From the sequence record NC_041874.1: a DNA stretch of 49,628 nucleotides. One strand, given 5' to 3'. A program made the translations under genes and the position numbers. The notes below the pieces were generated by a model. It saw only the letters and a program-made list of their open reading frames with translations. It was not told where the DNA came from and made no database searches. Source of the DNA: Escherichia phage JMPW1. Positions 1 to 49,628 of the stretch are shown one piece after another; positions within the stretch are counted from its first letter, which is position 1; each line of letters opens with the position of its first letter.

Positions 1-102
1 ATTGCATGGTTTGCAACAGTTGGTTGATTTGTTGCTTAGATTGCAATGATTGTGAGAGGGGGGGATCTAGTGTTGCCCGGTTCGCCTGGTAGTCATCTCC
101 AT

Positions 103-121
103 TTTTAGCAAAAAGTGCTAT
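103..121 (-). promoter_or_regulatory. Conserved box, minus orientation (reads ATAGCACTTTTTGCTAAAA on - strand), at left genome end
   Basis: Plus-strand TTTTAGCAAAAAGTGCTAT matches the box family found at about 25 gene boundaries. Confidence 0.4.
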
Positions 122-136
122 CGATTACACTTTACC

Positions 137-165
137 TTGTCACAGATGTAATATTTGTCTAGAAT
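137..165 (+). promoter_or_regulatory. Sigma70-type promoter TTGTCA-17 bp-TAGAAT
   Basis: -35 TTGTCA at 137-142, 17-nt spacer, -10 TAGAAT at 160-165, read directly. Confidence 0.5.
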
Positions 166-225
166 CGCACTTGTGACAAAATTACACACTGTGACGCCTC
201 TAAATATACATATAGATATATGTAT

Positions 226-242
226 CTATATAATATATATAG
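226..242. repeat. 17-bp AT-rich motif CTATATAATATATATAG, copy 1 (exact second copy at 30755-30771)
   Basis: Identical 17-mer read in both AT-rich control regions. Confidence 0.7.
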
Positions 243-524
243 TGTTTTCTTTATTTATATATATAGATAATTATATTGTAATAGTTGTGTATAGTTGTCT
301 TACATTGTCTAGCGTACTGTTGGCATATTTCTATCTGCATGTTTATATATACAGTACTTTTTTGAGAGCTATATATTTCTATAGTGACTCTAGACAGCTA
401 GACAAATGTTACACAGCTTAATATCGGCTCGCAGTCATTGACAGCTCTGTATCGCACTGTCACAATGTCAATTGTTGACACATTATGACGCCATTTACAC
501 ACGAATAGACAAAGAGGATATATT

Positions 525-1040
525 ATGAGCAATACCAATCAGGAATTAAAAATCACCGATATGATTCGACTAACCTGCGATGCAATGTATCGCGACAAAG
601 GCATGAATGAGTTCTCTTTCGTGGCTGATGATATGGCCCTCGAGGCCGCGCGATTCTACTTCCGTGACCAGGAGGTAAGTGATAGCGATCTTGAATCTGC
701 CGCTGCCGGATGGGTGGACCAGAACCAGGGTGAGGTGGAGAAGCGATTCAAGTCTGCTTTCATTACGCCAATCATTACCCGGCACTTTTGCAAGTATGGC
801 AAGGTGGCAAAGGTGAAGGTAGGCCGGAATGACGCTGCAATCACAATGATAACGGTTATCGTTACCGACGAAGAGATTCCCGTGAAGAAGCGCCGCAGTC
901 GGAAGAAAGTTAGCCTGGCCGATTGCCTGGATTCGTTTGTGGTTGATGTGGGTAAACTGGCTGATAGCGAATTGATGACTCGTGACGTAAACGAGATCGT
1001 TCGCCAGATGAAGGCGCATATCGAAAAGTGTGGACTGTAA
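525..1040 (+). CDS. hypothetical early protein (171 aa)
   Basis: ORF with RBS AAAGAGGA 9 nt upstream of ATG; first gene after left control region. Confidence 0.6.
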   Translation: MSNTNQELKITDMIRLTCDAMYRDKGMNEFSFVADDMALEAARFYFRDQEVSDSDLESAAAGWVDQNQGEVEKRFKSAFITPIITRHFCKYGKVAKVKVGRNDAAITMITVIVTDEEIPVKKRRSRKKVSLADCLDSFVVDVGKLADSELMTRDVNEIVRQMKAHIEKCGL

Positions 1041-2889: not shown

Positions 2890-3378
2890 ATGAAAATCAA
2901 ATTGCTTTGCACTGGCGGTTACAAGGGCTTTACTCGCGACCTGGAAGCGGATCCTATCGTGATTGATGCGGTGAAGTGTGATGATAGCCTCGGCGGCTAC
3001 CGCGTGAAGGTTGACGACCTGGTGAAAGCTGGCGTGTACGATCTGGGCTATGGACTTTCGGTTAGCCCGGTAGTTGGTCCGGCAGACTTCAACGAGAAGG
3101 ATGGAACGATGTTCTTCTTCGAATGGGAAGTCCAGGCAAATCCTAAGCCGCGCAAGGTTCGTCTTCTCAGTAATGGCGGCTACCCGATGCGTCCAGGTTA
3201 TGAGAATCGCACATTCCCGGTTATCGTTGACTTTGAAGAAATCACCGCACACTTAGCTTATATCAACGGTGAACAGCTTCATGCTGTTGGATTCGTGGGA
3301 TGTATGAATCAAGAGGCGCTATGCTTCTTCCATTGTAAAGCCGAGCCGTTCGATATTGAGTGCGAGTTAGTATACTAA
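2890..3378 (+). CDS. hypothetical protein (162 aa)
   Basis: ORF after cassette; stop TAA is first codon of next box (TAAGCAC). Confidence 0.55.
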   Translation: MKIKLLCTGGYKGFTRDLEADPIVIDAVKCDDSLGGYRVKVDDLVKAGVYDLGYGLSVSPVVGPADFNEKDGTMFFFEWEVQANPKPRKVRLLSNGGYPMRPGYENRTFPVIVDFEEITAHLAYINGEQLHAVGFVGCMNQEALCFFHCKAEPFDIECELVY

Positions 3379-3423
3379 GCACGAATTGTTAAAAGGGGAT
3401 TTGGCCTGACTGGTATAATCCCC
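3376..3423 (+). promoter_or_regulatory. Early promoter cassette: box + IR GGGGAT/ATCCCC enclosing -10 TATAAT
   Basis: Box TAAGCACGAATTGTTAAAA 3376-3394; IR 3395-3423; -10 3414-3419. Confidence 0.6.
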
Positions 3424-3449
3424 GCATAAACCACTAAGAGGAAAGCATC

Positions 3450-3956: not shown

Positions 3957-4101
3957 TGGCTGCATGGGTTTTGATTATCTTAATGAGTACCGGGCCGGAT
4001 CACGTATACATGGAAAGTCAGCAATCATGAAACAAGGTACGGGAAGTAATTGCAGAGAATAAGCCGTTCGGATATGAAGTAAAAACGATGTGCGTTAAAC
4101 G

Positions 4102-4151
4102 ATAGCACGAATTGCTAAACCTTCCGCAAGGCCATTTGATATAGTGGCCTT
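4102..4151 (+). promoter_or_regulatory. Early promoter cassette: box + IR AAGGCCA/TGGCCTT enclosing extended -10 TGATATAGT
   Basis: Box 4102-4120; IR 4128-4151; -10 4140-4145 preceded by TG. Confidence 0.6.
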
Positions 4152-4185
4152 ATTGAAGCAAGGCAACCAATCAGAGGAATCAGCT

Positions 4186-5446: not shown

Positions 5447-5665
5447 ATGGCTACTATCATAACAGCAGAAGATGCAGCACGCGACGCAGTGGAAGGAATG
5501 CGCCCAAATACCTCCAGAATAGCACACTACTACAAATCTGAGGTGTCGGCAGTGCAATTGGTCAACGAAATTTTAAGGCTACCACAAGTCGATTCAGCGC
5601 GCGTGGTGACGTGCTTAAAAAATTATTTTTGCATCGCTATTAAAACGAATAGCACGAATTGCTAA
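5447..5665 (+). CDS. hypothetical protein (72 aa)
   Basis: ORF; stop TAA lies inside next box. Confidence 0.3.
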   Translation: MATIITAEDAARDAVEGMRPNTSRIAHYYKSEVSAVQLVNEILRLPQVDSARVVTCLKNYFCIAIKTNSTNC

Positions 5666-5696
5666 AACCTATCAAGGGGAATGCGCTATGATTCCC
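5649..5696 (+). promoter_or_regulatory. Early promoter cassette: box + IR GGGAAT/ATTCCC enclosing -10 TATGAT
   Basis: Box 5649-5668; IR 5677-5696. Confidence 0.55.
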
Positions 5697-5722
5697 ATGC
5701 ACCAACAAACGAGGAAGCACTC

Positions 5723-6169
5723 ATGAAACACTTAATTTGCATTGAAACGCCTAACGACCAGTACACCCTGCACGGCATTGGAATGTTCAAAGGTCACTAC
5801 ATGACAGCAAGTATTCATGATTCGCGTTGCGTCAATGGCGATCTGATGATTACGTCAAAAGAAGTAACTCCGTACATTATGCAGAATCTTGGCAATAACG
5901 AATATATGGCCTACGGATGCAATGCGGTGTACAAGCATATCAAGATCAGAAAACGCGTTGTTCGCGCATTCAAGAAAATTGCAATGAAACAATGGAAGAT
6001 GAGCAAGAAAGATGCTGGACGCTGGGCGCGTAACGTTGCAGATTCATACTTCTACCGTAACGGTGAGTCCTGCCACTTCCTTATCGATGAACTTATGGAA
6101 AACTACGGCGGCGACTTCAGTCAGGGTGGCTTTGACGCTTGGGCTGACTACGAGGTCGATTACTGGTAA
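5723..6169 (+). CDS. hypothetical protein (148 aa)
   Basis: Start placed at ATG 5723 after RBS GAGGAAG; upstream ATG 5681 lies in promoter hairpin. Confidence 0.5.
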   Translation: MKHLICIETPNDQYTLHGIGMFKGHYMTASIHDSRCVNGDLMITSKEVTPYIMQNLGNNEYMAYGCNAVYKHIKIRKRVVRAFKKIAMKQWKMSKKDAGRWARNVADSYFYRNGESCHFLIDELMENYGGDFSQGGFDAWADYEVDYW

Positions 6170-6218
6170 TAGCACGAATTGCTAAAACTTGCTCAAGGGC
6201 ATTTGATAGAATGCCCTT
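6169..6218 (+). promoter_or_regulatory. Early promoter cassette: box + IR AAGGGCA/TGCCCTT enclosing extended -10 TGATAGAAT
   Basis: Box 6169-6188; IR 6195-6218; -10 6207-6212; CCAATCAGAGGA RBS follows. Confidence 0.6.
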
Positions 6219-6252
6219 CGTTGAGTTAAGCAACCAATCAGAGGAATAAATC

Positions 6253-6972: not shown

Positions 6973-7545
6973 ATGAAAACAGCTATCATTTTAAACGGTG
7001 CGCCTGGCGCGGGAAAAGACACTATAGGGTGCATCCTGGCTGACACTTACGATCATGTAGCGCTACGCAGCTTTAAAGCTCCAATGTTTGAGATTGCCCG
7101 AGCAATCCTGGGTGAGACTAATTTTGAGTATTTCATGTTCTTGTATGAGGACCGTCGCTATAAAGAAGAGCCAGCATCAATCCTGAACGGTAAAAGCCCG
7201 CGCCAGTTTATGATCTGGATTAGCGAGGAGGTTATCAAGCCGCAGTTCGGAAATCGCTTCTTCGGTATGCGAGCGGAAAGCAAGGTGAAAGAGTCTCACT
7301 CCCTTTCGGTATTTACTGACGGTGGATTCAAAGACGAAATCTTGCAGATGATTGAAGGTGAAATCCAGGTCAAGCTATGTCGAATCCATCGCAACGGTTG
7401 CAACTTTGACAACGACAGTCGCGACTACATCTATCTTGACGATATGATCGGGGTCAACGGTTATCAGGAATGTGACTTCTTCTCTGTCGAAGGTCATCCA
7501 GAAATTACCGCTCAGCACATAGCCGCCACGTTCATCAACAAATAG
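6973..7545 (+). CDS. P-loop kinase, deoxynucleoside monophosphate kinase-like
   Basis: Walker A GAPGAGKDT and LNGKSP motif resembling phage T4 gp1 dNMP kinase (from memory). Confidence 0.55.
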   Translation: MKTAIILNGAPGAGKDTIGCILADTYDHVALRSFKAPMFEIARAILGETNFEYFMFLYEDRRYKEEPASILNGKSPRQFMIWISEEVIKPQFGNRFFGMRAESKVKESHSLSVFTDGGFKDEILQMIEGEIQVKLCRIHRNGCNFDNDSRDYIYLDDMIGVNGYQECDFFSVEGHPEITAQHIAATFINK

Positions 7546-7589
7546 CACGAATTGCTAAAACGTCGGTGGGGTGACTTGATATAGTTACC
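7542..7589 (+). promoter_or_regulatory. Early promoter cassette: box + imperfect IR enclosing extended -10 TGATATAGT
   Basis: Box 7542-7561; IR about 7568-7589; -10 7580-7585. Confidence 0.55.
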
Positions 7590-7617
7590 TCATCGACAAC
7601 GAAGAGAGAAAATCGAA

Positions 7618-8601: not shown

Positions 8602-8765
8602 CCTGAATCTCTGAGCGGTGATAGTATTAATCCCGTAGACAGACGAGGCGCAAATAAGCGCAACGCGTGAGACGATTCTCACACTTCCAGCTAACAAGCT
8701 CGGTTGCATAGTGGTTAAGCAACGCCGCAGACCCGTAAGCGGCAACAATTCAAGAGGATTGCATA

Positions 8766-8927
8766 ATGCAAAAAACTAAAGACGAATCAGTCAAAATTGA
8801 AATTAAAGTAACTCGCAACGGTGAAACCACTAGTTATAAAAAACGATTAAATCCTGGCGAGGCTGTTATTGGTCGCATTGCTGGCGTTATGATTAAGGCG
8901 CAGGAAGATGAAGCGATTCAAAGTTAA
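8766..8927 (+). CDS. hypothetical small protein (53 aa)
   Basis: ATG 8766 preceded by AAGAGGA; below the 60-aa cutoff of the ORF track. Confidence 0.4.
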   Translation: MQKTKDESVKIEIKVTRNGETTSYKKRLNPGEAVIGRIAGVMIKAQEDEAIQS

Positions 8928-8943
8928 ATTAATTATTCGAAAG

Positions 8944-9093
8944 ATGGGAATGTTTTGCCAGTCGTGCAAGCAATCTTTCGAAACTGAATTATCAGCAACC
9001 AGTCAGGATGAAGCCATCACGAAAGCAAAAAAACTTTCCGGCGCTAACCTTGACACTCACAAAATAAATATTGAATTAATCAAGGAGATTTAA
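8944..9093 (+). CDS. hypothetical small protein (about 49 aa, start uncertain)
   Basis: ORF 8908-9093 trimmed to first ATG after upstream stop. Confidence 0.3.
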   Translation: MGMFCQSCKQSFETELSATSQDEAITKAKKLSGANLDTHKINIELIKEI

Positions 9094-29654: not shown

Positions 29655-30343
29655 TGTCATACGGTGCTTTTATAGATGTAAACGGAAACCCATTCATAAC
29701 CCCGTTATCCACGCCATTCGCCTTATATGAGAGAGGGGAAATTCAATCAGTAAATGTTAGTGGTTCACAGGTTGCGGAGAGATATGTTCGGATACCTACA
29801 GGTGTTCCGGTTATAGCTTTTTGCAAAACAACAAACACGCAGCAGGGGACCGCGCTTTCAGCCTTTACTTTCAGAAGCGGACCCAATGTTGGAACTGTTT
29901 ATATAAGGGGGACAAATCCAGCAAACCAATCATACACGCTAACATACTACATATTTGCCATATTTGAGCAGTCACTACCGAGCTGGGGTATGGCAATATG
30001 GGATTCGTCAGGAAAGCTAGTGCTGACAAATGAGACAAAAGTCCTTAGTGATTTGGTTACAATCGGCACTCCTGGATACGCTGGAGGTGGATTAAACATA
30101 GACACAACACTCAGCGGAAGCTACGCAGTTGTTCCAACTATACTTGGCAACTATCAAATTGTTATTGGCAGGCTGCCAACTGGGCAACCCATAATAGGAA
30201 ACTCAACAGCAGGCAGCTCATGCAGGTACAACGGGAGCGCAACTAGGATAAATGCAGCAGCAACCACAGCGGCAGGTCAGATAATGAACACCACGAATAA
30301 TGGAAATATCATAACAGCAATCAACACAGCAGCGTATGACTAA
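29654..30343 (+). CDS. hypothetical tail-associated protein (229 aa)
   Basis: ORF; T/N/G-rich composition. Confidence 0.4.
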   Translation: MSYGAFIDVNGNPFITPLSTPFALYERGEIQSVNVSGSQVAERYVRIPTGVPVIAFCKTTNTQQGTALSAFTFRSGPNVGTVYIRGTNPANQSYTLTYYIFAIFEQSLPSWGMAIWDSSGKLVLTNETKVLSDLVTIGTPGYAGGGLNIDTTLSGSYAVVPTILGNYQIVIGRLPTGQPIIGNSTAGSSCRYNGSATRINAAATTAAGQIMNTTNNGNIITAINTAAYD

Positions 30344-30366
30344 GCCCCTTGCGGGGCTTTTCTTTT
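30343..30366 (+). terminator. intrinsic terminator ending late operon
   Basis: AGCCCC-TTGC-GGGGCT then TTTCTTTT. Confidence 0.65.
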
Positions 30367-30592
30367 ATATCGAGCAATCGTGAGACTTGAAGTTTTTCTC
30401 TGATACGTAGTTGAATGAGAATGGGTATCCAGCACGCAATAGCATCTCCTCTCCGCGCATCTTAGATCCAAAAACGTAAACCGAGTACTCTGCGCCTCCT
30501 GATTCATAAATTGCCGTACAAGTGCGCTCAGGCATCGATGAGCAACCAGTCAGGATGAATGCCGCAGCGATAATGGTGATTAACTTTTTCAT
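30365..30592 (-). CDS. small lipoprotein, candidate superinfection-exclusion protein (Cor/Llp-like)
   Basis: Signal peptide ending in lipobox LTGC; lone reverse-strand gene downstream of tail genes; own sigma70 promoter. Confidence 0.45.
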   Translation of the reverse strand: MKKLITIIAAAFILTGCSSMPERTCTAIYESGGAEYSVYVFGSKMRGEEMLLRAGYPFSFNYVSEKNFKSHDCSI

Positions 30593-31116
30593 TTGTATGT
30601 CCTCGTCGTTAGTGTGATTGCATTGTATGTCGCATTTACTTTTATTGCAATAGCACTATTACAATTTTTTCGTGTAACAGGTGTCTATTTTTGTAACCGG
30701 AGCGGGTGTTACAAAATCCACCCCATCCGACCGCAGAGGGATATGATAAAAACTCTATATAATATATATAGATAGATAATATTTAATTTTAGCTTTATAT
30801 ATAATTATTGTTGTGTAACAGTTGTCTATTGTGTAACTGGTGATTTGATTGATTCGTCAAATTTCTATCATATATGTTCAAAATTTAATCAATATGGATT
30901 CTACTTGTAGCTATCTCTGTATTTCTAAGAAAAAGCGGTTACAAGTATTACACAGTAGACATCACATAAAAATAGACTTAAGCCATTGATTCCGTTAATG
31001 CTGGTTGTAACTTGAGCGATATAGACACGCTATTACACACCAATTACATGTATCCGATTGACTAAACGCTGTTAATGGCTATAATGGATTCATCGTAAAC
31101 GAAGGAGATAAACGCA
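30593..31116. promoter_or_regulatory. Divergent AT-rich control region with iteron-like repeats (candidate origin or early control region)
   Basis: No convincing ORF; direct repeats GTGTAACAG(G/T)TGTCTATT at 30672-30689 and 30813-30830; CTATATAATATATATAG at 30755-30771; several TTACACA motifs. Confidence 0.5.
31058..31085 (+). promoter_or_regulatory. Sigma70-type promoter TTGACT-16 bp-TATAAT for recombination operon
   Basis: -35 31058-31063, -10 31080-31085. Confidence 0.55.
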
Positions 31117-32181
31117 ATGTTCCAAGTATTCACATCAAGTCAGCTTTCTAATGACGAGTATCATAGCAACGAAGGTTGGGCGGCAGAGTATGTAAGCGGT
31201 TCGAGCCTTGCAGAAATTTATCAGACTTGCCCGGCTAACTGGCGATTCAAGAAGAACGAGACGACTAAAGCGCTGGAGTTTGGTACTCAGTCGCACACCA
31301 ACTTTGAGAGCCGAGATCTGTTTACTGCATCGTATGCGCGTTGTCCGGCTCCGGCAGAGTTTAAAGATCTCATTACTTCGCAGGCGGCGCTGGCAGCAAA
31401 ATTAAAATCTTTTGGCCTGAAAGGTACATCCGGTAAGCAGTACCCGGACCTCATCAAAATGATGGTTGATTGTGGCGAAGACCTTAACGTTCAATACCTG
31501 ATTGAACTGATCGCAGAGGCTGAGGCGCGCGCTGAAGGAAAGAAACTCGTCGACGCTGATAAATACGACGCCTGCATGAAGATGAGAGCTATACTTGAAC
31601 AGAACCCCGATCATGAAGCGTGCATCAACAGCGAAACAGCGCAGCGTGAAATCTCAATATTCGGTGAAATATCCGGCGTCAAGGTTAAGGTTCGACTAGA
31701 TCATCTTGACTACAAAGAGAATGTACCAGGTCGTGTACTGACTGGTTATGATGAGAATGGTGATCCGGTATTTGAAGACGTAATTTTCCCGGAAGCACTG
31801 ATTATCACAGATTTCAAAACTACGATGAGCGCCAACCCGTTAGAGTTCCCGAGACTGGCATACAATCACGGTTATTACCTGAAGATGGCATTGCAGCATG
31901 ACCTGCTACGTCGCGCAATCCAGGCTGGCGCTTTTGAAGGAAACTTCCCGGAAGATATTCCGATCGTAGTTCGATTGCTTGCGCAGGAGAAAAAAGAGCC
32001 TTATATCGCACTGGCTTACCGTATGACTATGGAGCAAATCAGGATCGGTCGTAACCAGTACATTAGCGTAGTCCACACTTACAAGGCTTGCTCTGAAATG
32101 GATGTTTGGCCTGGGTACGCTGGCGACGCAAGCGAGATCGAACTTGAAACGCCATCATGGGTGCGTTACCAAAATAAGTAA
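31117..32181 (+). CDS. putative recombination exonuclease
   Basis: First gene of exo-ERF-SSB module; D..D/E.K-like ITDFKT segment. Confidence 0.5.
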   Translation: MFQVFTSSQLSNDEYHSNEGWAAEYVSGSSLAEIYQTCPANWRFKKNETTKALEFGTQSHTNFESRDLFTASYARCPAPAEFKDLITSQAALAAKLKSFGLKGTSGKQYPDLIKMMVDCGEDLNVQYLIELIAEAEARAEGKKLVDADKYDACMKMRAILEQNPDHEACINSETAQREISIFGEISGVKVKVRLDHLDYKENVPGRVLTGYDENGDPVFEDVIFPEALIITDFKTTMSANPLEFPRLAYNHGYYLKMALQHDLLRRAIQAGAFEGNFPEDIPIVVRLLAQEKKEPYIALAYRMTMEQIRIGRNQYISVVHTYKACSEMDVWPGYAGDASEIELETPSWVRYQNK

Positions 32182-35343: not shown

Positions 35344-36279
35344 TCAGAGTAGGTCACTTGCTGAGAATAACTTGGCTTGCATTCCTGAGCGGTATCCTCC
35401 AGGATTTGGGATGATTATTTTTAATTGTCGGTCGTCTGCCATGTATAAAGTCTCCTTGTCTGAAGGTTCGCACGCAACCCTTACTTCTCGATCCCCTTTA
35501 TATCTGTATGCAACCATTTCCAGATTCTCAGGAGTGAAGCAGGCCCATACCTCTTGCTTTGTGTGAAATGCAATATGCTGAGCATCAATCCAATTAAGGC
35601 ATAAGTAGATCGCTTTTTCTGTTTTACCAGTCACGGCAACCGAGCAACTTGTGTATTTCTTAGCGTAAAATGACTCCCTACCCTCCTCATCAATAATCAA
35701 AATATTACAAAACTCATCATCAAGACCGTCCTCGTGTACAAGTTGACATGGTATGGTGTGAAATACGCTCTCGCCGCCATCCTCGCGACGTTTTACGCCA
35801 ACGTCGAATGATTCAGTAGGTAGAGATTCAAACATGCTTAGAGGTGTGTTTACGCGCTTCTCTGTGCGCTCCATGACTTTCATCACCGCTTCATGATCTG
35901 CCATCATGACATTGACACCAGATACCGGAGTTCGGCGCGCTTTCTTGTTTGCCTTGACGATGTATTCCTGCGGAACTTTTCCGAGAAATCTTCCCAGGAT
36001 ATTTATGCATTCGCTATACGGCATACCAGTTAATTTCATTAGCCACCCGATCCCGGAGTCGTTACCGCATGAGTTGCAGATCGCACCTCCGTCGCCCGGA
36101 GTGTTCAGGTTATCAGTCCAGCGAAAGCGGTCTTTACCTCCGCAGTTAGGGCAAGGTTGGTGCTTCTTATTAAAAACATCATTCGGCAATCCGCAGATTG
36201 ATTGGAAAGCCTCGCGCCATAACCCCTTCATGTACGGCAAAACGTCCTCTTTCTGAAACATCATAAATTCTTCGTTCAC
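35344..36279 (-). CDS. putative DNA primase (zinc-binding)
   Basis: CPNCGGKDRFRW and CNSCGND cysteine motifs; divergent from helicase. Confidence 0.45.
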   Translation of the reverse strand: MNEEFMMFQKEDVLPYMKGLWREAFQSICGLPNDVFNKKHQPCPNCGGKDRFRWTDNLNTPGDGGAICNSCGNDSGIGWLMKLTGMPYSECINILGRFLGKVPQEYIVKANKKARRTPVSGVNVMMADHEAVMKVMERTEKRVNTPLSMFESLPTESFDVGVKRREDGGESVFHTIPCQLVHEDGLDDEFCNILIIDEEGRESFYAKKYTSCSVAVTGKTEKAIYLCLNWIDAQHIAFHTKQEVWACFTPENLEMVAYRYKGDREVRVACEPSDKETLYMADDRQLKIIIPNPGGYRSGMQAKLFSASDLL

Positions 36280-36340: not shown

Positions 36341-36793
36341 TTAACTAAAAATGCTATTGGTCGTTCCGATATCTTCCTTCTTCACGACGCGCATAAATTT
36401 CTTGTTCTTGCATCGCTTCTCAAGGCACTTGCCGTTACCGTCAAACTTCAGGTCGAATCGCAACCATGCGGCACGAAATCCTTTGCACCCCTGTCGGCGG
36501 TAAGCGCGATGCGCAGCTTCAGCGCCTTGCCATGAAATCATATTTCGATCTTTCCAGCCTTGCACCGTCTGATTGCTAACTTTTAGAGCCTTTGCGCAGG
36601 CCGCAGGGCCGCCGTAATATTCGATAAGAGCATCAAGTCGCGCTCGCAGTCCGGCGCGTGTTTCTTCTTTATGAATATAGAACCCGCAACGCTGTCGAGG
36701 CTTTTTATCTTTACCGCGCCGTGTTCCGTTGTTACCATTGATGTGACGTTTATCGATTTTACCAGTTGATTCTGCGATACGTTGAATACTCAT
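36341..36793 (-). CDS. putative helix-turn-helix DNA-binding regulator
   Basis: HTH-like AACAKALKVSNQTVQGWKD; basic protein in divergent replication control region. Confidence 0.4.
   Translation of the reverse strand: MSIQRIAESTGKIDKRHINGNNGTRRGKDKKPRQRCGFYIHKEETRAGLRARLDALIEYYGGPAACAKALKVSNQTVQGWKDRNMISWQGAEAAHRAYRRQGCKGFRAAWLRFDLKFDGNGKCLEKRCKNKKFMRVVKKEDIGTTNSIFS
36342..36358 (-). promoter_or_regulatory. Box, minus orientation, upstream of primase
   Basis: Plus-strand TTAACTAAAAATGCTAT; overlaps stop of regulator gene. Confidence 0.4.
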
Positions 36794-38905: not shown

Positions 38906-39318
38906 TTACAGACAAAGGTGATTATTTAGAGTTTTACGAGCGAGATCCCAGCGACACTCGAAAGGAGGACGCTCATCAGGTGGATTGTGTGTCCTGGCTG
39001 AAATACAATTTCCCTCACCTTCTATTTTGGCACACTGTCAATGAAGGTGAAAAAACAATCACATCAGCGCTCAGGGATGAGCAGGCCGGATTACTTAAAG
39101 GAGTGTCGGACTTCGTTATCCTGATTGGTGTTAACTCAAGATACCCGTTTGCAGCAATCGAACTTAAGCGGGTTAATAAGTCAGGCAAAGGAAAGGCGTC
39201 ACCAGTCAGCGACAAGCAAAGGGAATTTCTCAGAAAGGTCATGGAGCGTGGCGGCTTCTCTGCCGTCGCATACGGATTTGAGCAATTCAAGATCGCAATT
39301 TACGAAATGATGAAATAG
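38902..39318 (+). CDS. VRR-NUC domain nuclease
   Basis: D...ELK signature VSDFVILIGVN...AIELK. Confidence 0.55.
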   Translation: MITDKGDYLEFYERDPSDTRKEDAHQVDCVSWLKYNFPHLLFWHTVNEGEKTITSALRDEQAGLLKGVSDFVILIGVNSRYPFAAIELKRVNKSGKGKASPVSDKQREFLRKVMERGGFSAVAYGFEQFKIAIYEMMK

Positions 39319-39370
39319 CACTTTTTGTTAAAACTGCCGGAATGGAATCTGGCATTATTATCTCACCAAC
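39315..39370 (+). promoter_or_regulatory. Promoter cassette: box + IR
   Basis: Box ATAGCACTTTTTGTTAAAAC 39315-39334; IR about 39335-39354; TAG stop of VRR-NUC gene inside box. Confidence 0.5.
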
Positions 39371-39385
39371 ACTAGAGGACTAAAA

Positions 39386-40099
39386 ATGAAAGACTTTAAT
39401 GATATCGAAACTATCGACTTTGCTGAAACTGGTTGCTCATTCACTCGCGAAGCAATAGCGTTTGGCGGTTATTATCAGGCACTAAAAACTCCAACATGCA
39501 AAGAGATTTCAGGCCGTCGATATAAGGGAACCAATACGCCGGATGTTGTTCGTGATTTATGGTCAACCCCGCGCGAGGTTATTGCGTACCTTGAGGGGCG
39601 TTATGGAAAATACGATCTCGACGCTGCGGCAAGCGAAGAAAATAAAGTTTGCGAGAAGTTTTATTCTCAGGAAACAAACTGCTTAAAACGTTGGTGGGGT
39701 AAAAACAAGCATGTATGGTTAAACCCTCCTTATAGTCGACCTGATATATTCGTCAAGAAGGCGATCGAGCAAATGGAGCACAATAATCAGATTGATATTC
39801 TGTTGCCTGCCGATAATTCTACAGCGTGGTTTACTGAGGCGCGACAGCACGCGGCTGAAATCATCTGGATTGAAGCTGACTTGACTGAGGATATTGACGG
39901 CAACAAGTATGCTCGATCCGGACGACTGGCGTTTATATCCGGTGAAACCGGAAAGGCCGTAGATGGTAATAACAAAGGTTCGGTAATTTTTATCATGCGC
40001 GAACTTAAAGATGGTGAGACGCAGCAAACTCACTATATCCCAATCACAAGCATTTTCCCTTCGGTGAAAAACAAGCGCGCAAAAGTGAGGAAAGTATGA
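39386..40099 (+). CDS. dam: DNA N6-adenine methyltransferase (Dam-like)
   Basis: Catalytic NPPY motif (WLNPPYSRPD); size 237 aa. Confidence 0.75.
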   Translation: MKDFNDIETIDFAETGCSFTREAIAFGGYYQALKTPTCKEISGRRYKGTNTPDVVRDLWSTPREVIAYLEGRYGKYDLDAAASEENKVCEKFYSQETNCLKRWWGKNKHVWLNPPYSRPDIFVKKAIEQMEHNNQIDILLPADNSTAWFTEARQHAAEIIWIEADLTEDIDGNKYARSGRLAFISGETGKAVDGNNKGSVIFIMRELKDGETQQTHYIPITSIFPSVKNKRAKVRKV

Positions 40100-41183: not shown

Positions 41184-42335
41184 ATGTCACAAGCTAAAAT
41201 CACTACCGAGCAACTTGTCGAAGAGCGCATGAACGGCCTTACACTTCGCGAGATCGCGGAAAAGTACGGTATGCATATTCGAACTGTTGAGGCTCGACAC
41301 GCAAAATTGGCAAAAGAAGGCCACTTTCACGGCAATGAGCATGTTGCTAAAAACGTTCCTGAAGGCTTCATGGTAAAAGGCACATCAACAATGATTCGCG
41401 GTGATGGGACTGAGGTCGTGCGATGGGTTAAGACCGATCAGGACCGTGAGAAGATTGCAGCTATGATGGAAGCTGCACGCATTGCATTTTGTGAAGACTT
41501 GCCGCGAGCAAAGCCAACTGAGCTGCTCACATCGCAAGGTCTTACAACCTCTATTGGAAAGCTGGCACTATACCCGGTGTTCGATCTTCACATTGGCGCG
41601 CTTGCTCATAAGCATGAATGTGGAGAGAACTACTCTACCGACGTAGCGGAAAAAGTGCTTAGCGACTTCTTTAATTACGCGATCGATATTGCTCCGAACG
41701 CAGAGAAGGCCGTTCTTTTAATCGGCGGTGACTTCCTTCACTCGGACGGTCTTGATGCTGTTACCCCGGCAAGTGGTCACGTTCTGGATCAGGATTCACG
41801 ATATGCAAAATTGGTGCATGTAGCTATTAGATCTGTTCGTCGCGCTATCGACAAAATGCTACTGAAACACAAAGAAGTCGAGGTCCAGGTTATCGAAGGG
41901 AACCACGATCAGTCTGGGATGATTTGGCTGCGCGCTGCAATGTCGGCATATTATGAAGACGAGCCGCGAGTATTCGTTGACGTTAGTCCTATGATTCTGC
42001 ATAAGACTCGTTGGGGAAATACCTTGTTGGGATACACTCACGGGCACACTATGAAAAAGGCAGAGACTCGACTCGCAGCTATGGCAGCAGATTTCCGCGC
42101 AGATTTTGGTGAAAGCAAATACGTGTACACGCATAGCGGTCACTGGCATCACCAGACAATCACTGAGCACTCACTCGGTATTGATGAGGTTCACGGCCAG
42201 TTAGGCGCGAAAGACGCATACGCAGCACGAGGAGGGTGGCGCTCGTATCGCCAGGCGGCTGTAATTGTTTACGATAAGCAATTTGGGGAAATCGGTCGTT
42301 TCATCTATCGTCCAGAAATGACAGGATCGCACTAA
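41184..42335 (+). CDS. HTH-fused calcineurin-like metallophosphoesterase
   Basis: N-terminal HTH-like LTLREIAEKYGMHIRTVEARH; phosphoesterase motifs FDLH, GGDFLHSD, GNHD, GHWHH. Confidence 0.65.
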   Translation: MSQAKITTEQLVEERMNGLTLREIAEKYGMHIRTVEARHAKLAKEGHFHGNEHVAKNVPEGFMVKGTSTMIRGDGTEVVRWVKTDQDREKIAAMMEAARIAFCEDLPRAKPTELLTSQGLTTSIGKLALYPVFDLHIGALAHKHECGENYSTDVAEKVLSDFFNYAIDIAPNAEKAVLLIGGDFLHSDGLDAVTPASGHVLDQDSRYAKLVHVAIRSVRRAIDKMLLKHKEVEVQVIEGNHDQSGMIWLRAAMSAYYEDEPRVFVDVSPMILHKTRWGNTLLGYTHGHTMKKAETRLAAMAADFRADFGESKYVYTHSGHWHHQTITEHSLGIDEVHGQLGAKDAYAARGGWRSYRQAAVIVYDKQFGEIGRFIYRPEMTGSH

Positions 42336-42369
42336 TTGATAAAAACTCCCGAAGGGATTCGGGCATAGT
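42326..42369 (+). promoter_or_regulatory. Promoter cassette: box variant + IR CCCGAA/TTCGGG + -10 CATAGT
   Basis: Stop TAA of upstream gene inside box; IR 42348-42363. Confidence 0.5.
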
Positions 42370-42398
42370 AACCACATCGAAAACAAAGAGGCTATATC

Positions 42399-44331: not shown

Positions 44332-45900
44332 TTAACCCATCAGTCGAGGGTTGATGAAAACAATATCATCAATCCGGCAAGTGTAGTTCATCTCTTCGAG
44401 CGTGATCAGCAGGCTGTCGATTCGCTCAGATACTTTCTGTTGACCGTTGAACGGCGTAACGTTCCGGCACTTTGCAACGATGCTATGAATAGGTGCGCGG
44501 CCTTTGTTCTTCTTCGCGATCTCAGTGATAACATCAATCAGCTTACGAGATTCAGCCTCATCACCTGCATACCCGGCAGCGCTGGCAGATGACAGGTAAG
44601 TCCTGGAAAGCTCATTGAAGATCATGATCGCTTCCTGCATTGTTTCAAGGTCAATCTCACGATTAGATCGGTTCGGTGATTCACCCTCCCAATTCTTGAT
44701 CGTGTGAAGAACTGAAGCAATGCGCAAAGCGTGCTTATCGAACTTACCGAGATGACCGCGTAGCATTGAGTGAGAGTATTTGCCCCCGGCGGCGAAATCA
44801 GGCTCCATCGCCTGGCGAGCAAGGTTTAATTCACGCATAGCGTTACGGCTTACAGAGAGAACGACGTTGTCCTCCTTCATAATGTTGTGCACGAGTCTGT
44901 AATATTTGCTAACCAGTCCGCGATCTACTTCCTTATACAGCGCATCACCATTTTCATCGCAAAGAATACGAGTACCTAAAAGCGGTTCCTCTCGAACCAG
45001 GAGGAAACGCTCAGATACACCGATACCGCGCTGGCCTGCGTCCATGATACCCTTGATTGTTTCATCCTGCGCAATGACGCAGATCGAACCGACCGGGCAA
45101 AGAGATAAGTTGTTGTCCTGATTTGAACGCGCGACCTCCATATGGTTTTTATCCCACGCCTTAAGAATAAGCTCGCTGTTTGATTTCTTATCAGAACCGC
45201 CATAAGTCAGACCAAGCAATGTATTGATTGCCGTTGCTTCATCAGATATTACGGAAAAGTGGCCTTGAACAGCCGCAACTTTCGCAAGACCTTCAGGTGT
45301 AGGATCTGATACCGCGAAAACAATATCAGCCATCTTCTTGATCTTTTCTTCCAGTTTTTCCTTGTCTTCGTACAGAGCCGCCGTCGTGTTACCCTTTGGA
45401 TCGTTTTTTATTTCTTTCTCGACCTGACGTAGCTGACTGGTTAAACGTATGCGCTCCTTTTTGCGCTCTTCATTCAGTCGCTGAATCTCCGCACGCATAG
45501 GTGTAATCGCCGCTGAGTTAATAGCGGACTTACCTGTTGATGGTGGCTGGCTGATTACCATGTAAAGCGCGGTCGGCTGTTCTTCGCCGTGATATTGCAC
45601 CCAAAACTTCCCGAGCATAGCGGCTGAGATGCACCCAATGAAATGAGCGTACGCAGACGAAACAGGGAACTGTACAGACTCAGCCTTTGCCTTTGCATAT
45701 TCGAATACCAGGTTATCGCCACCTAACGAAATCAGCGGGAACTTATCGTTTCCACTGTTGATATCGATCGGATCTTGCCAAAACGAAACTGAATCCCCAT
45801 AGCTGTTTTCACGAATTGCGATCGACACCGGATTAACTCCAGTGCTATTTGCGATCTCAATAATCTGTTGGTAATTCAATTTTGGCTTAATATTAAACAT
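44332..45900 (-). CDS. large hypothetical protein with Walker A-like PPSTGKS motif (about 522 aa)
   Basis: Start moved to ATG 45900 (RBS AAGGAG); ORF-track start 45963 lies inside the box. Confidence 0.5.
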   Translation of the reverse strand: MFNIKPKLNYQQIIEIANSTGVNPVSIAIRENSYGDSVSFWQDPIDINSGNDKFPLISLGGDNLVFEYAKAKAESVQFPVSSAYAHFIGCISAAMLGKFWVQYHGEEQPTALYMVISQPPSTGKSAINSAAITPMRAEIQRLNEERKKERIRLTSQLRQVEKEIKNDPKGNTTAALYEDKEKLEEKIKKMADIVFAVSDPTPEGLAKVAAVQGHFSVISDEATAINTLLGLTYGGSDKKSNSELILKAWDKNHMEVARSNQDNNLSLCPVGSICVIAQDETIKGIMDAGQRGIGVSERFLLVREEPLLGTRILCDENGDALYKEVDRGLVSKYYRLVHNIMKEDNVVLSVSRNAMRELNLARQAMEPDFAAGGKYSHSMLRGHLGKFDKHALRIASVLHTIKNWEGESPNRSNREIDLETMQEAIMIFNELSRTYLSSASAAGYAGDEAESRKLIDVITEIAKKNKGRAPIHSIVAKCRNVTPFNGQQKVSERIDSLLITLEEMNYTCRIDDIVFINPRLMG

Positions 45901-45920
45901 CACAATAAACTCCTTAGTTG

Positions 45921-46409: not shown

Positions 46410-46473
46410 TGGTTATCTTGAATAAGGCCACTTTATCAAATGACCTTACGGCAATATTAACAAATCGTGCTAT
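46410..46473 (-). promoter_or_regulatory. Promoter cassette, minus strand: box + IR
   Basis: Minus-strand ATAGCACGATTTGTTAA (plus 46455-46473); IR AAGGTCA/TGGCCTT. Confidence 0.5.
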
Positions 46474-46686
46474 TTACCAGGGAATATAATTGTCGTCGTC
46501 CTCATCAATATCATCACCAGGTAACTCGAAGTCTGGATTATATTCGCTTTCTGCGTCCATATCCATATTCCCTAGAGCGTCATCAAGCGTAATTTCTTTA
46601 TACGCAACCTTTATACACCATTCCGCACTAAGCCCAGCATCAAGAGCGGCAAAATAACGAGTCCAGAAATTATCCTGCTCCATCAA
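46474..46686 (-). CDS. small acidic protein with SSB-tail-like C-terminus (70 aa)
   Basis: C-terminus DIDEDDDNYIPW resembles SSB acidic tip (DDDIPF). Confidence 0.45.
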   Translation of the reverse strand: MMEQDNFWTRYFAALDAGLSAEWCIKVAYKEITLDDALGNMDMDAESEYNPDFELPGDDIDEDDDNYIPW

Positions 46687-48509: not shown

Positions 48510-48570
48510 TCGTTTCGATGAGGTAATTATGCCAAATCGCACCGATCGAGTTTTAACAAAAAGTGCTATT
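48510..48570 (-). promoter_or_regulatory. Promoter cassette, minus strand
   Basis: Plus-strand TTAACAAAAAGTGCTAT 48554-48570; minus-strand -10-like CATAAT downstream. Confidence 0.45.
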
Positions 48571-49466: not shown

Positions 49467-49524
49467 TGCCTGAGTCCTCTGATTGGTTGATGTGATGAAT
49501 CATACCCTGCCGACCTGGCTGAGT

Positions 49525-49543
49525 CGTTAGCAAAAAATGCTAT
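49525..49543 (-). promoter_or_regulatory. Box, minus orientation, upstream of right-hand minus-strand block
   Basis: Plus-strand TTAGCAAAAAATGCTAT. Confidence 0.5.
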
Positions 49544-49589
49544 TCCAATAATTGCTCATTATTCCATCAATAGCGGAATAGGTGGAATA
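49541..49589. repeat. Cluster of four GGAATA/TATTCC hexamers near right genome end
   Basis: TATTCC at 49541 and 49560, GGAATA at 49575 and 49584. Confidence 0.5.
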
Positions 49590-49628
49590 ATTCTGATTGC
49601 GATTGATTGCAAATGATGAAACGTGATT

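Follow-up and report, generated by a model that had tools for sequence, protein, structure and literature searches.

What does the non-coding DNA at the left end of the genome of Escherichia phage JMPW1 do, and why do an exact 17-mer and a family of short motifs from this region recur in a second, distant region of the same genome? The window, which is the whole stretch of 49,628 nucleotides analysed here, is a T1-like (Tunavirus) genome opened at the T1 genome end; its base 1 aligns with base 1 of the T1 record, where a 2.8-kb terminal repeat is annotated. T1 is one of Delbruck's seven T phages. According to the 2024 re-annotation of phage TLS by specialists in this group of phages, a search of the whole TLS genome found no iteron-like repeats (PMC11447400), and no origin was found in a 2020 study of phage SU57 (PMC7718038). 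Recent papers report no origin in T1-like phages, and a competing candidate is thus lacking; an older description of the two regions is possible. Our results suggest that the two regions are two copies of one cis-acting module, most likely replication origin(s), and as candidates for the start site of T1 replication these paired modules are precise, with coordinates, a repeat consensus and candidate binders.

A composite region at the genome end

The first-pass annotation saw no credible gene in positions 1-524, and the relatives agree: the first CDS of T1 begins at 539, and nearly all of the 58 related phage records carry no annotation here, a few predicted promoters and hypothetical proteins excepted. 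The open reading frame at 155-421 had been regarded as a low-complexity translation of TATATA repeats, and it is indeed not preserved, since the T1 sequence differs there and phage FCWL1 carries a 146-bp deletion, which is not a multiple of three. Sequence of the (TA)n type is rich in stop codons. No Rfam match reached gathering scores across the window, and none was found at E <= 1 in 1-700 or 30300-31300.

The region is a composite, in which bases 1-122 are a different element from bases 123-524. The features around the genome end are as follows:

1-122: genome-end part, with GATTGC/TTGCA repeats and one copy of the 21-nt ATAGCAC element
123-524: module A, about 400 bp, paralogous to 30593-31117
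49590..49628 (+): left part of the GATTGC/TTGCA cluster across the genome end; candidate site of pac or of small-terminase recognition
1..64 (+): right part of the same cluster, then a G-run at 58-64
49522..49544 (-): 21-nt element aaATAGCACnnnTTGnTAAAA (repeat family D6), conserved in T1
100..122 (-): another 21-nt ATAGCAC element (families D6 and I17/I22/I23), bordering module A on the left

Bases 1-64 and the final 40 bases of the window make up a separate repeat cluster, which is probably the pac site. Six copies of GATTGC/GCAATC lie between -50 and +60, where 0.25 are expected (P about 3e-7), and all GATTG copies around the genome end share one orientation. Bases 1-64 are about 90% conserved relative to T1, whereas the adjoining repeat arms have diverged. 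Related records begin at window positions 1-90, and GATTG-type repeats are present at the equivalent place in TLS, KLPN1 and DTL; the GATTGC repeats were not found in module B.

The 21-nt element has been described as an intergenic element of function unknown in phage TLS (PMC11447400). It is a separate genome-wide element of T1-like phages, of which there are about 20 copies, every one lying upstream of a gene and pointing along transcription, and it is not part of the module of AT core and repeats. The two copies inside or beside the region serve as leftward borders: the copy at 49522-49544, upstream of the leftward early genes (first ORF 49466-49254), bounds on the left the divergent intergenic region, which continues across the genome end, and the copy at 100-122 is identical in T1 and nearly invariant in nine relatives.

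Module A and its paralogue

Module A consists of repeat arms on both sides of two AT-rich blocks, followed by the first gene:

123..204: left repeat arm, with ATTACA (124), TGTCACA (138), TGTGACA (172), ATTACACA (181) and TGTGACGCC (190-198)
147-161 (-): composite repeat TAGACAAATATTACA of the left arm
205..282: AT core 1, holding the 17-mer CTATATAATATATATAG (226-242); proposed DNA-unwinding element
283..339: inner G+T-rich segment with TTGT-type repeats (TTGTGTA, TTGTCTTACA, TTGTCTAG), oriented opposite to the right arm
340..384: AT block 2, with GTTTATATATAC (341-352) and CTATATATTTCTATAG (369-384)
391..417 (+): first cluster of the right arm, TAGACA-GC-TAGACAAATGTTACACA, with a composite repeat at 399-413 (+)
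458..514 (+): second cluster of the right arm, with TGTCACA (458), TTGTTGACAC, ATGACGCC (485), TTACACA (495) and TAGACA (506)
525..1040 (+): first gene, gp1, 171 aa, with its ATG at 525

The second cluster of the right arm lies within the leader of gp1 and is followed by the ribosome-binding site GAGG (514-517). Between the two TA blocks there is a keto skew of +0.2 to +0.3, and the same polar profile is seen in all ten modules examined. In phages of the T1 type the left arm is replaced by ATTACG/GATTAC repeats and the first cluster of the right arm, which is nearly invariant in nine relatives, by three copies of CGATTAACA, while AT core 1 is about 97% identical between the window and T1 though both of its flanks differ; this core is almost invariant in the nine relatives, and positions 339-362 of AT block 2 are likewise conserved in T1. 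The allele of gp1 co-varies with the repeat type of region A, both arms being switched around the conserved core. In FCWL1, whose record is PP558327, positions 377-522 are cleanly deleted, which removes the whole right arm; provided that the FCWL1 assembly is correct, this arm appears dispensable, and because FCWL1 was apparently viable when isolated, no more than one module, or half of one, can be essential.

The second region has the same parts:

30593..31117: module B, paralogue of module A
30658-30713: left repeats, with a composite repeat at 30673-30687 (-)
30741-30810: AT core, holding the 17-mer at 30755-30771
30814-30828 (-): composite repeat
30938-31048: right repeats, with a composite repeat at 31022-31037 (+)

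The exact recurrence of the 17-mer is confirmed, and the genome holds no third copy even when two mismatches are allowed; two copies were obtained in none of 100 dinucleotide shuffles. The motifs reported for the first region are similarly concentrated. Apart from the copies of TGTCACA/TGTGACA at 138, 172 (minus strand) and 458, the genome contains a single one, at 41185, and seven of the nine genomic copies of TTACACA fall within the 927 bp of the two regions. TAGACA is present nine times in the two regions and six times in the remaining 48.4 kb. The repeat common to both variants of region A and to region B is the hexamer RTTACR, with 16 copies in A and B together (5 and 11, respectively) where 1.8 are expected (P = 1e-10); the corresponding count in T1 is 18 against 1.9. 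All five genomic copies of the composite TAGACA-N2-5-TTACA are located in A or B, a number reached in none of 100 shuffles; relative to the outer AT blocks, those on the left are on the minus strand and those on the right on the plus strand. RTTACR takes both orientations on either side of the core, and repeat orientation in general is mixed on both sides. A simple dyad or strict mirror symmetry was dropped, because inverted and direct 6-mers shared between the arms both exceed the shuffles, and the left-right test with inverted k-mers is not clean.

Helix instability and conservation

The two cores rank first and second in instability among the 80-bp windows of the genome (core A, starting at 203, z = 6.1; core B, z = 5.3), and the third-ranked site has a z of 3.3. 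The same holds for all five genomes compared (the window, T1, TLS, KLPN1 and DTL), in which the two cores have z = 5.0-6.3 and the next site never exceeds z = 3.6. Local alignment of A with B gives z = 9 over dinucleotide shuffles in the window and z = 14-28 in the four other genomes. Alignment scores of A with B within one genome are 53-90, as against 23-49, apart from one value of 62, for positional orthologues from different subfamilies, and such sequence comparison indicates that the two copies of one genome evolve in concert.

Two modules each are present in five Drexlerviridae genomes from four lineages, and the repeats that they carry change from lineage to lineage: GTTACA and TAGACA in Tunavirus, GTGAACA and GGAACA in the TLS-like phages, ten copies of GGTAAGAT in Webervirus, GTTACGC and GTATAC in Braunvirinae, and eight copies of TTGCGGAGGAT at one further locus (L115). 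Lineage-specific repeats within a conserved layout fit a co-evolving binder encoded by the phage. Taken together, the paralogy, the least stable cores and the two-module layout in four lineages support the first-pass proposal of two related control or origin regions with a common motif family.

Module B appears to be under purifying selection. Among 14 Tunavirus genomes 21% of its columns vary, compared with 19% in the exonuclease CDS and 57% in the cor CDS, so that by this measure it is conserved like the adjoining exonuclease CDS, with an almost invariant core. The 17-mer of the second region is exact in 13 of 14 close relatives within Tunavirus; at the first region it is exact or one base off in window-type relatives and slightly more diverged in T1-type phages, and its CTATATAATA part is also found in both TLS modules. 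The condition under which the first-pass annotation would have been refuted, a 17-mer without conservation in related phages, is not borne out. In Webervirus, the two genes that flank module B run in the same direction; the module stands at the primase 3' end, upstream of the exonuclease gene, and keeps its full architecture with both arms. The recE-erf-ssb block is inverted in this genus, and module B moved along with it, its polarity towards the exonuclease gene unchanged. Outside the family, the exonuclease gene of Saltrevirus has no non-coding region of this kind beside it. Copies of module B were also sought in E. coli genomes, where satellites or prophages might hijack the origin, and no match was found.

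Promoters

Four sigma70-like sequences are relevant to the modules:

137..165 (+): TTGTCA (137-142)-17-TAGAAT (160-165), a 10/12 match made from two repeats, reading into the AT core
438..466 (+): TTGACA-17-(TG)CACAAT, a 10/12 match, predicted first-gene promoter about 60 nt upstream of the gp1 ATG
31058-31085: TTGACT-16-TATAAT, predicted exonuclease promoter, conserved across subfamilies
30650-30622: predicted leftward cor promoter

The near-consensus promoter that had been pointed out at 137-165 is a real match, but it is not a conserved feature of the module, being kept solely in window-type relatives and missing from T1-type region A and from module B. Six consensus promoter matches occur in the AT-rich positions 1-524, compared with 3.3 +/- 2.0 in shuffles, which is no significant enrichment. 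At transcription-primed origins, such as the primary origin of T7 and the oriF/oriG type of T4, a promoter reads into a downstream AT-rich unwinding element; here 137-165 reads into core A, and neither module B nor T1-type region A has an equivalent. The sequence at 438-466, whose hexamers barely vary among nine relatives while its spacer does, is the better-supported of the two and is the probable promoter of the first rightward gene.

Candidate binding proteins

The first-pass annotation left open whether the repeats bind a phage or a host factor. A host factor is unlikely, and the lineage-varying repeats point to a phage-encoded binder. An oriC-like or host-factor reading was rejected on the following grounds: a perfect DnaA box (TTWTNCACA) is present in none of ten modules, IHF and Fis consensus sites show no consistent enrichment in the ten modules, and GATC is nearly missing, with no copy in eight of the ten against about 2.4 expected per 500 bp. 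DnaA boxes with one mismatch show marginal enrichment at most, and in the window's own modules alone (P = 0.04 and 0.09), not in other lineages. Two phage proteins are the main candidates:

44335..45903 (-): DUF3987 helicase, 522 aa (Pfam DUF3987, E = 3e-42), proposed trans-acting partner
36341..36793 (-): Cro-like HTH protein, 150 aa, with a weak P22_Cro match and assigned to phrog_2856 ("transcriptional regulator")

DUF3987 proteins have been described as MCM-like phage replicative helicases with a C-terminal wHTH (PMC4889955). The AlphaFold2 model of the JMPW1 protein (pLDDT 89.6, pTM 0.87) has MCM2-7 and archaeal MCM as its best solved folds (E = 1.9e-5, probability 1.0), and its residues ~448-520 take up a helix-strand-helix-helix-hairpin topology; as modelled, the protein is MCM-like with a C-terminal winged helix. 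Its gene is about 4 kb from module A and about 13 kb from module B. The Cro-like HTH protein, encoded between the primase gene (35344-36279) and the gene for an SNF2-type helicase, is an alternative candidate for the repeat binder. Over about 60 loci the HTH protein's recognition-helix class varies with the repeat family, as does the winged helix of the helicase, both relations being confounded by phylogeny. Moreover, the type-specific repeats of region A differ between the window and T1 while the helicase and HTH proteins are 98-99% identical, and therefore not all repeats can be sites of these proteins.

The product of gp1 is a weak candidate for a DNA binder. Its role as an iteron-specific initiator was demoted on account of FCWL1, which lacks the gp1 promoter and ribosome-binding site, and of RTTACR, which both types of region A share. 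A scan of ten replication-region proteins, among them the primase, the DUF3987 and SNF2 helicases and the Cro-like HTH protein, gave no match to a lambda O or P family.

Alternative explanations

The strongest alternative is that the modules are transcription-control hubs between divergent early promoters, with the repeats as operators for a phage regulator, for example the Cro-like HTH protein, which would time or shut off early transcription, while the AT core would provide an UP-element, curved DNA or internal promoters. In most lineages both modules do lie between divergent early genes with outward promoters at their borders. RTTACR copies precede the -35 hexamer of the exonuclease promoter by 15-26 bp, and TGTCACA overlaps the -10 hexamer of 438-466. 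The 17-mer contains a perfect TATAAT, and the CTATATAATA box is conserved out to TLS; the tracking of the repeat family by the recognition helix, and the fact that module B accompanied the inverted block of Webervirus with its polarity to the exonuclease gene kept, also suit a regulatory role. On the other hand, about 400 bp with 11-16 repeats and a core conserved like coding DNA are far beyond the known needs of phage operators. By inspection of the sequence, a -35 partner for the TATAAT of the 17-mer is missing both from module B and from TLS, and promoter-like matches are not enriched relative to shuffles. The Webervirus module stands at a non-divergent junction and yet retains both arms, and FCWL1 appears to tolerate the loss of the 438-466 promoter together with the gp1 ribosome-binding site. 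We consider control of transcription rather less likely than replication, and this reading is compatible with an origin function.

It is improbable that the modules are structural or packaging DNA, neither origins nor operators, acting as platforms for H-NS, IHF or Fis or as accessory sites, for packaging (pac enhancers, for instance) or for recombination (for instance sites that the RecE/Erf pathway prefers for invasion). The positions would be suitable, since some 120 bp separate module A from the genome end with its candidate pac repeats, and module B is directly upstream of the recE-erf-ssb recombination genes; extremely AT-rich DNA is, in addition, a typical target of H-NS. But sites for IHF and Fis are not consistently enriched, and binding driven by composition needs neither concerted evolution nor lineage-specific repeats that contain GC (TTGCGGAGGAT, GGTAAGAT). 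Module B, furthermore, has no genome end alongside and lacks the GATTGC repeats. Least probable are small non-coding RNA or micro-protein genes hidden in the AT-rich DNA, for although module B is highly conserved and promoter-like matches read into the core, Rfam gives no match even at E <= 1, (TA)n is full of stops, the frame at 155-421 is lost in relatives, and the conserved units are short repeats in both orientations instead of one structured transcript.

The modules as proposed replication origins

We estimate at about one half the probability that modules A and B act as a pair of replication origins, or as one origin with a helper site, as judged from sequence comparison. This reading is favoured by the instability of the cores, the enrichment of repeats, paralogy with concerted evolution, the lineage specificity of the repeats, purifying selection, the presence of a matching helicase and the lack of a competing candidate. 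The layout of module B in Webervirus additionally suggests that the architecture is independent of divergent promoters. Several observations count against it: the modules are not adjacent to the helicase gene, whereas SaPI origins are directly downstream of rep; repeat orientation is mixed; the repeats abut the flanking promoters, as operators would; the Cro-like regulator follows the repeat family just as the winged helix of the helicase does; the right arm of module A is deleted in FCWL1; and the type-specific repeats of region A differ from those of T1 despite nearly identical helicase and HTH proteins. The replication of T1 could also be largely recombination-driven.

Protein binding, melting and origin activity at the modules are proposed in the following form. 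A phage-encoded protein would bind the RTTACR hexamers and the TAGACA-N2-5-TTACA composites, which flank the (TA)n core on either side in opposed orientations. The favoured candidate for this binder is the MCM-like DUF3987 helicase, whose C-terminal winged helix would make the contact, and the alternative is the Cro-like HTH protein encoded beside the primase. The most easily melted core would then open and the helicase would be loaded on each side, after which the DnaG-type primase of the phage may prime synthesis and host DNA polymerase III extend it. Outward-facing sigma70 promoters would bound each module and drive the flanking early genes; these would be, in module A, the rightward 438-466 and the leftward 21-nt element (100-122), and in module B 31058-31085 and 30650-30622.

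A wider scheme for the Drexlerviridae can be outlined, though we regard it as tentative and more doubtful than the origin reading itself. The genomes would possess two concertedly evolving origins, on which the MCM-like DUF3987 helicase self-loads at lineage-specific hexamer iterons around an AT core. The copies beside pac and beside the recombination genes would cooperate by looping or handcuffing, in the manner of ori and crr of P4, and would thus couple initiation to recombination and packaging.

The candidates apply to the whole family, including many phages isolated on Klebsiella, Escherichia and Shigella. If origin function is confirmed, MCM-like DUF3987 helicases of phages use origins built like those of SaPIs, and the modules become useful parts for the engineering of T1-like phages. 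If they prove to be operator hubs instead, they still define the main early regulatory regions of these phages.

Comparison with known systems

The closest parallel in architecture is provided by the SaPIs, the pathogenicity islands of Staphylococcus aureus, whose Rep helicases self-load at origins with 6-12 penta- or hexanucleotide iterons in opposite directions, split by a central AT-rich region (PMC9371898). The modules resemble these origins in several respects. The iterons are short and similar in number (5-11 RTTACR per module), they are split by a central AT-rich region and run in opposite orientations (mixed here and not strictly mirrored), and their sequence is specific to each element. 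The helicase is in both cases an MCM-like AAA+ protein with a C-terminal winged helix and a separate or fused primase, the binding of helicase to repeats being putative here. The differences are that the SaPI origin is directly downstream of rep and the modules are not, and that JMPW1 is a virulent coliphage, not a satellite, with two copies per genome, each with two AT blocks, an inner G+T-rich segment and longer composites.

In satellite phage P4, ori and crr are distant cis regions with a common short repeat, and the replicative helicase, the gp-alpha primase-helicase, binds this repeat through its C-terminal winged-helix domain; crr acts as an enhancer. The presence of two distant cis regions with a common short repeat in one replicon is shared with JMPW1, and the TGTTCAC repeats of the TLS-like phages resemble the P4 octamer TGTTCACC. 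Alpha, however, is a fused primase, helicase and binding protein, whereas here the primase is separate from the MCM-like DUF3987 helicase. Bacillus phage SPP1, a virulent siphophage of the pac type, has two separate origins, oriL and oriR, in which repeated binding boxes adjoin an AT-rich stretch, as in the modules. Its initiator G38P is a dedicated origin-binding protein that recruits a DnaB-type helicase via a loader, oriL lies inside the initiator gene, and the SPP1 proteins are not homologous to those of JMPW1.

In the lambda origin an AT-rich region accompanies four 19-bp iterons that lie inside the O gene. Iterons that adjoin an AT-rich unwinding region are a shared feature, those of lambda being bound by a phage-encoded protein, but the modules described here are intergenic, their repeats are hexamers and 15-mers instead of 19-mers, and the ten proteins scanned include no homologue of O or P. 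A lambda-type origin was the model sought by the authors of the TLS study (PMC11447400).

The remaining parallel concerns archaeal origins. There, inverted ORB elements, bound by Orc1/Cdc6, flank an AT-rich unwinding element at which MCM is loaded. Oppositely oriented repeats around an AT-rich element, a helicase of the MCM fold and the possibility of several origins per replicon are common to both, while an Orc1/Cdc6 homologue is missing here and the repeat lengths differ. If true, the scheme of two origins served by a DUF3987 helicase would represent initiation of the SaPI or archaeal style in a classical virulent coliphage.

Two related modules in the genome

The AT-rich region at 1-524 is composite: repeats of the genome end and a 21-nt element are followed by a separate module from 123 to ~520 (module A, 123-524). 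Its paralogue, module B (30593-31117), is flanked by the genes for the cor lipoprotein and the RecE-like exonuclease, and G+C is ~32% in both modules compared with 46% in the remaining genome. Both present the same elements in the same order, namely outer repeats, a (TA)n core starting with a common CTATATAATA box, an inner G+T-rich segment with TTGT-type repeats, a second TA block, A+C-rich repeats and a sigma70 promoter toward the downstream gene. The first-pass annotation had related two distant regions through a 17-mer and a motif family, and these observations hold. Perfect copies of the 17-mer lie at 226-242 and 30755-30771, with no further copy at up to two mismatches and two copies in 0/100 shuffles; seven of the nine genome copies of TTACACA lie inside the two regions (927 bp); and TGTCACA/TGTGACA, present at 138, 172 and 458, has just one other copy genome-wide. 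TAGACA occurs nine times in the same 927 bp and six times elsewhere, and the RTTACR hexamer reaches 16 copies in the two modules, where 1.8 are expected (P = 1e-10). All five genome copies of the composite repeat TAGACA-N2-5-TTACA lie within A or B, and five copies were seen in 0/100 shuffles:

147-161, minus strand, composite repeat
30673-30687, minus strand, composite repeat
30814-30828, minus strand, composite repeat
399-413, plus strand, composite repeat
31022-31037, plus strand, composite repeat

A simple test for strict mirror symmetry of the repeat arms was not clean, because both orientations are present on either side; the keto-skew profile is polar, with the same shape in 10/10 modules examined. 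When stability was computed from nearest-neighbour stacking energies, the cores ranked first and second for instability among all 80-bp windows of the genome (z = 6.1 at 203, z = 5.3 at 30741), with the third site at z = 3.3. The same two outliers are found in T1, TLS (Tempevirinae), KLPN1 (Webervirus) and DTL (Braunvirinae), and of 80 loci sampled around the HTH gene, the majority of those reaching far enough to cover the region have one extreme unstable site where module B is expected.

As had been proposed, 1-524 holds no credible gene: the first CDS of T1 starts at 539, nearly all 58 related records are unannotated there, and the ORF at 155-421 is broken in T1-type relatives and also by a 146-bp deletion in phage FCWL1. 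The near-consensus promoter claimed at 137-165 (TTGTCA-17-TAGAAT) is present in the window; T1 and the paralogous region lack it, and promoter matches in general show no enrichment in so AT-rich a region (6 versus 3.3 +/- 2.0 in shuffles). There is better support for the promoter at 438-466, whose hexamers are nearly constant in nine relatives while its spacer varies.

Genome end and the 21-nt element

The first 3 kb match vB_EcoS_IME167 at 100% identity and many Tunavirus genomes (T1-like siphophages) at 87-92%. In alignment, the window and the T1 reference record start at the same base. That record annotates 1-2800 as terminal repeat and therefore opens at the pac-proximal genome end; the window is therefore a whole genome. 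Right-end genes run leftward (first start 49466) and left-end genes rightward from 525, and thus the region belongs to a divergent intergenic region of ~685 bp that wraps the genome end. GATTGC/TTGCA repeats cluster at 49590-49628 and 1-64 (6 observed, 0.25 expected); the GATTG copies all point the same way, and a G-run follows. Comparable repeats occupy the equivalent position in TLS, KLPN1 and DTL, and several GenBank records start within positions 1-90; the cluster is a candidate pac region.

The 21-nt element aaATAGCACnnnTTGnTAAAA is already known, having been reported for TLS without an assigned function (PMC11447400). Its copies include the following:

49522-49544 and 100-122, minus strand, 21-nt element
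1050-1115, 1789-1854, 2810-2875, 3371-3436, 4097-4162, 5644-5709, 6164-6229, 7537-7602, 39310-39375 and 42321-42386, plus strand, 21-nt element with hairpin
46413-46478 and 48512-48577, minus strand, 21-nt element with hairpin

The 6-bp hairpin begins ~8 nt past the element, and its stem varies in sequence among copies while complementarity is kept, with both-side changes in 5/6 pairs and 73.6% of cells paired versus 60% in shuffles, a level reached by 1/500 shuffles. A -10-like TATAGT lies in the loop and 3' arm, and a TTGnTA hexamer 22 nt from it is too distant for a -35 role. The hairpins are annotated as terminators in some relatives, though they have no T tail, and the TLS description of the repeat does not mention them (PMC11447400).

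Conservation of layout and divergence of repeats

Two modules are present in each of five complete genomes from four lineages. The layout is conserved across lineages and the repeats are particular to each.

Main repeats by lineage or related phage locus
Tunavirus: GTTACA, TAGACA
TLS-like phages: GTGAACA, GGAACA, AGAACA
Webervirus: GGTAAGAT, ten copies; CCACAAA in its module A
Braunvirinae: GTTACGC, GTTACAC, GTATAC
Locus L025: GATTACA
Locus L115: TTGCGGAGGAT, eight copies

Similarity between A and B is significant in all five genomes (z = 9-28 against dinucleotide shuffles), with within-genome scores of 53-90 compared with 23-49 for positional orthologues of different subfamilies (one exception, 62). 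Judged by these scores, the two copies in each genome evolve in concert, which is the expectation if one trans-acting factor serves both. Among 14 Tunavirus genomes, variable columns make up 21% of module B, 19% of the exonuclease CDS and 57% of the cor CDS, and 30741-30895 is almost invariant, a pattern of variation that shows strong constraint on module B. The cor gene (30365-30592, minus strand), which encodes a superinfection-exclusion lipoprotein, is far more variable than the adjoining non-coding module.

In Webervirus the recE-erf-ssb block is inverted, and module B, lying between the primase 3' end and the exonuclease gene, which are co-directional, retains both arms despite the inversion; therefore it is not just a by-product of divergent promoters. 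In Klebsiella phage KLPN1 (L060, 31392-34147) the ssb-erf-exonuclease block and module B are inverted as one, placing the module directly after the primase gene; region A of this phage carries mainly CCACAAA (eight copies) and region B GGTAAGAT (ten copies).

A GC-containing element, CCGGCGTAAAT or a close variant, occurs two to three times per module in the same orientation, in TLS (L059) modules A and B and also upstream of the exonuclease gene in loci L026, L047 and L115. It is common to Tempevirinae-like lineages and L115 despite their differing main repeats, has a relative in Webervirus (CGTAAATTTCGCGC) and has no observed copy in Tunavirus; a second, more conserved factor may bind there.

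Candidate binding factors

A perfect DnaA box is found in 0/10 modules. GATC is absent from eight of the ten and occurs once in each of the other two; 123-524 and 30593-31117 have none, where the genome average predicts ~2.4 per 500 bp, although the phage encodes a Dam-like methylase (39386-40099). Repeats that differ by lineage suggest that the phage itself encodes the binder. Among the non-structural genes are those for a DnaG-type primase with a zinc ribbon, a Cro-like HTH protein, a SNF2-type helicase and a DUF3987 helicase. The last of these is modelled with confidence (pLDDT 89.6, pTM 0.87); among solved structures the model is closest to MCM2-7 and archaeal MCM (Foldseek E = 1.9e-5, probability 1.0), and a winged-helix domain forms its C-terminal end. 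The fold is in line with the classification by Kazlauskas et al., in which DUF3987 proteins are MCM-like replicative helicases of phages that carry a C-terminal wHTH (PMC4889955). In DTL (L061, NC_047893) the second gene right of region A, ORF17 (8671-9093), is a 'headless' paralogue of this helicase, in which the N-terminal domain (residues 1-73, 56% identity) is joined to the C-terminal winged helix (448-525, 63%) without the ATPase. This protein might act at the module as a regulator or competitor; no counterpart is encoded in the window.

The HTH recognition helix and the helicase winged helix both track the repeat family over ~60 loci, a correlation confounded by phylogeny. Region A of Tunavirus comes in two types, that of the window (TAGACA, TTACACA, GTCACA) and that of T1 (CGATTAACA three times plus ATTACGCC), which differ in both arms while the intervening core is ~97% identical. 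Which type a phage has goes with its allele of gp1, the gene downstream (525-1040), and the window phage and T1 share 98-99% identity in their helicase and HTH proteins. RTTACR, common to both A types and to B, could be the site of a shared protein, and the type-specific repeats may belong to another. As a binder, gp1 is a weak candidate. Its model has a three-helix plus hairpin topology and no significant fold match. Among 17 homologues gp1 is a mosaic of N-terminal, middle and C-terminal 30-residue parts in different combinations, the N-terminal part with or without a 22-residue insert; most retain a KKRRSRKK patch and a C-terminal VRQMKAHIEKCGL, and some weakly match DUF7174.

The FCWL1 deletion (L064, PP558327, 368-385) is clean, and corresponds to window 377-522 between ATATAT microhomologies. 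It leaves the gp1 ORF whole but removes its ribosome-binding site, the promoter at 438-466 and the right repeat arm of module A; the deletion reflects either a viable natural mutant or a fault of the assembly. In Shigella phage vB_SsoS_008 (L008) a hybrid region A precedes gp1, with a T1-type leader and ribosome-binding site remnant (gttaatcatggtgtatattgaaactaaggagaaagct) just upstream of a window-type leader (catttacacaccaatagacaaagagg), an arrangement that marks a recombination junction within the right arm.

Possible function of the modules

What do these paired modules do? We give a probability of about one half to the reading that both serve as replication origins, or that one is an origin and the other a helper site. 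In this scheme the repeats would be recognised by a phage protein that would open the AT core and bring in the MCM-like helicase, after which the phage primase would prime and the host polymerase elongate. This reading rests on anatomy, physical instability, constraint, concerted evolution and the matching helicase type, and also on there being no other origin candidate in the accessible literature. The main rival, in which early genes are controlled from the modules as hubs of operators and promoters, is appreciably less probable and is compatible with an origin; it draws on the repeats adjoining promoters and on a Cro-like regulator that co-varies with them. Nucleoid-protein binding (IHF and Fis sites show no consistent enrichment across the ten modules), hidden RNA genes (Rfam gives no match) and a packaging or recombination role are less likely.

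The paired modules are undescribed in the literature searched, though an earlier mention may exist elsewhere, and the authors of one paper state that they detected no iteron-like repeats in any part of the TLS genome (PMC11447400). For the origin reading, the closest known architecture is the SaPI origin, where iterons flank a central AT-rich region on both sides in opposite directions (PMC9371898). SaPI Rep proteins are self-loading helicases whose winged helix recognises 6-12 penta- or hexanucleotide iterons (PMC9371898), and they are of the same kind as the DUF3987 helicase, MCM-like with a C-terminal wHTH.
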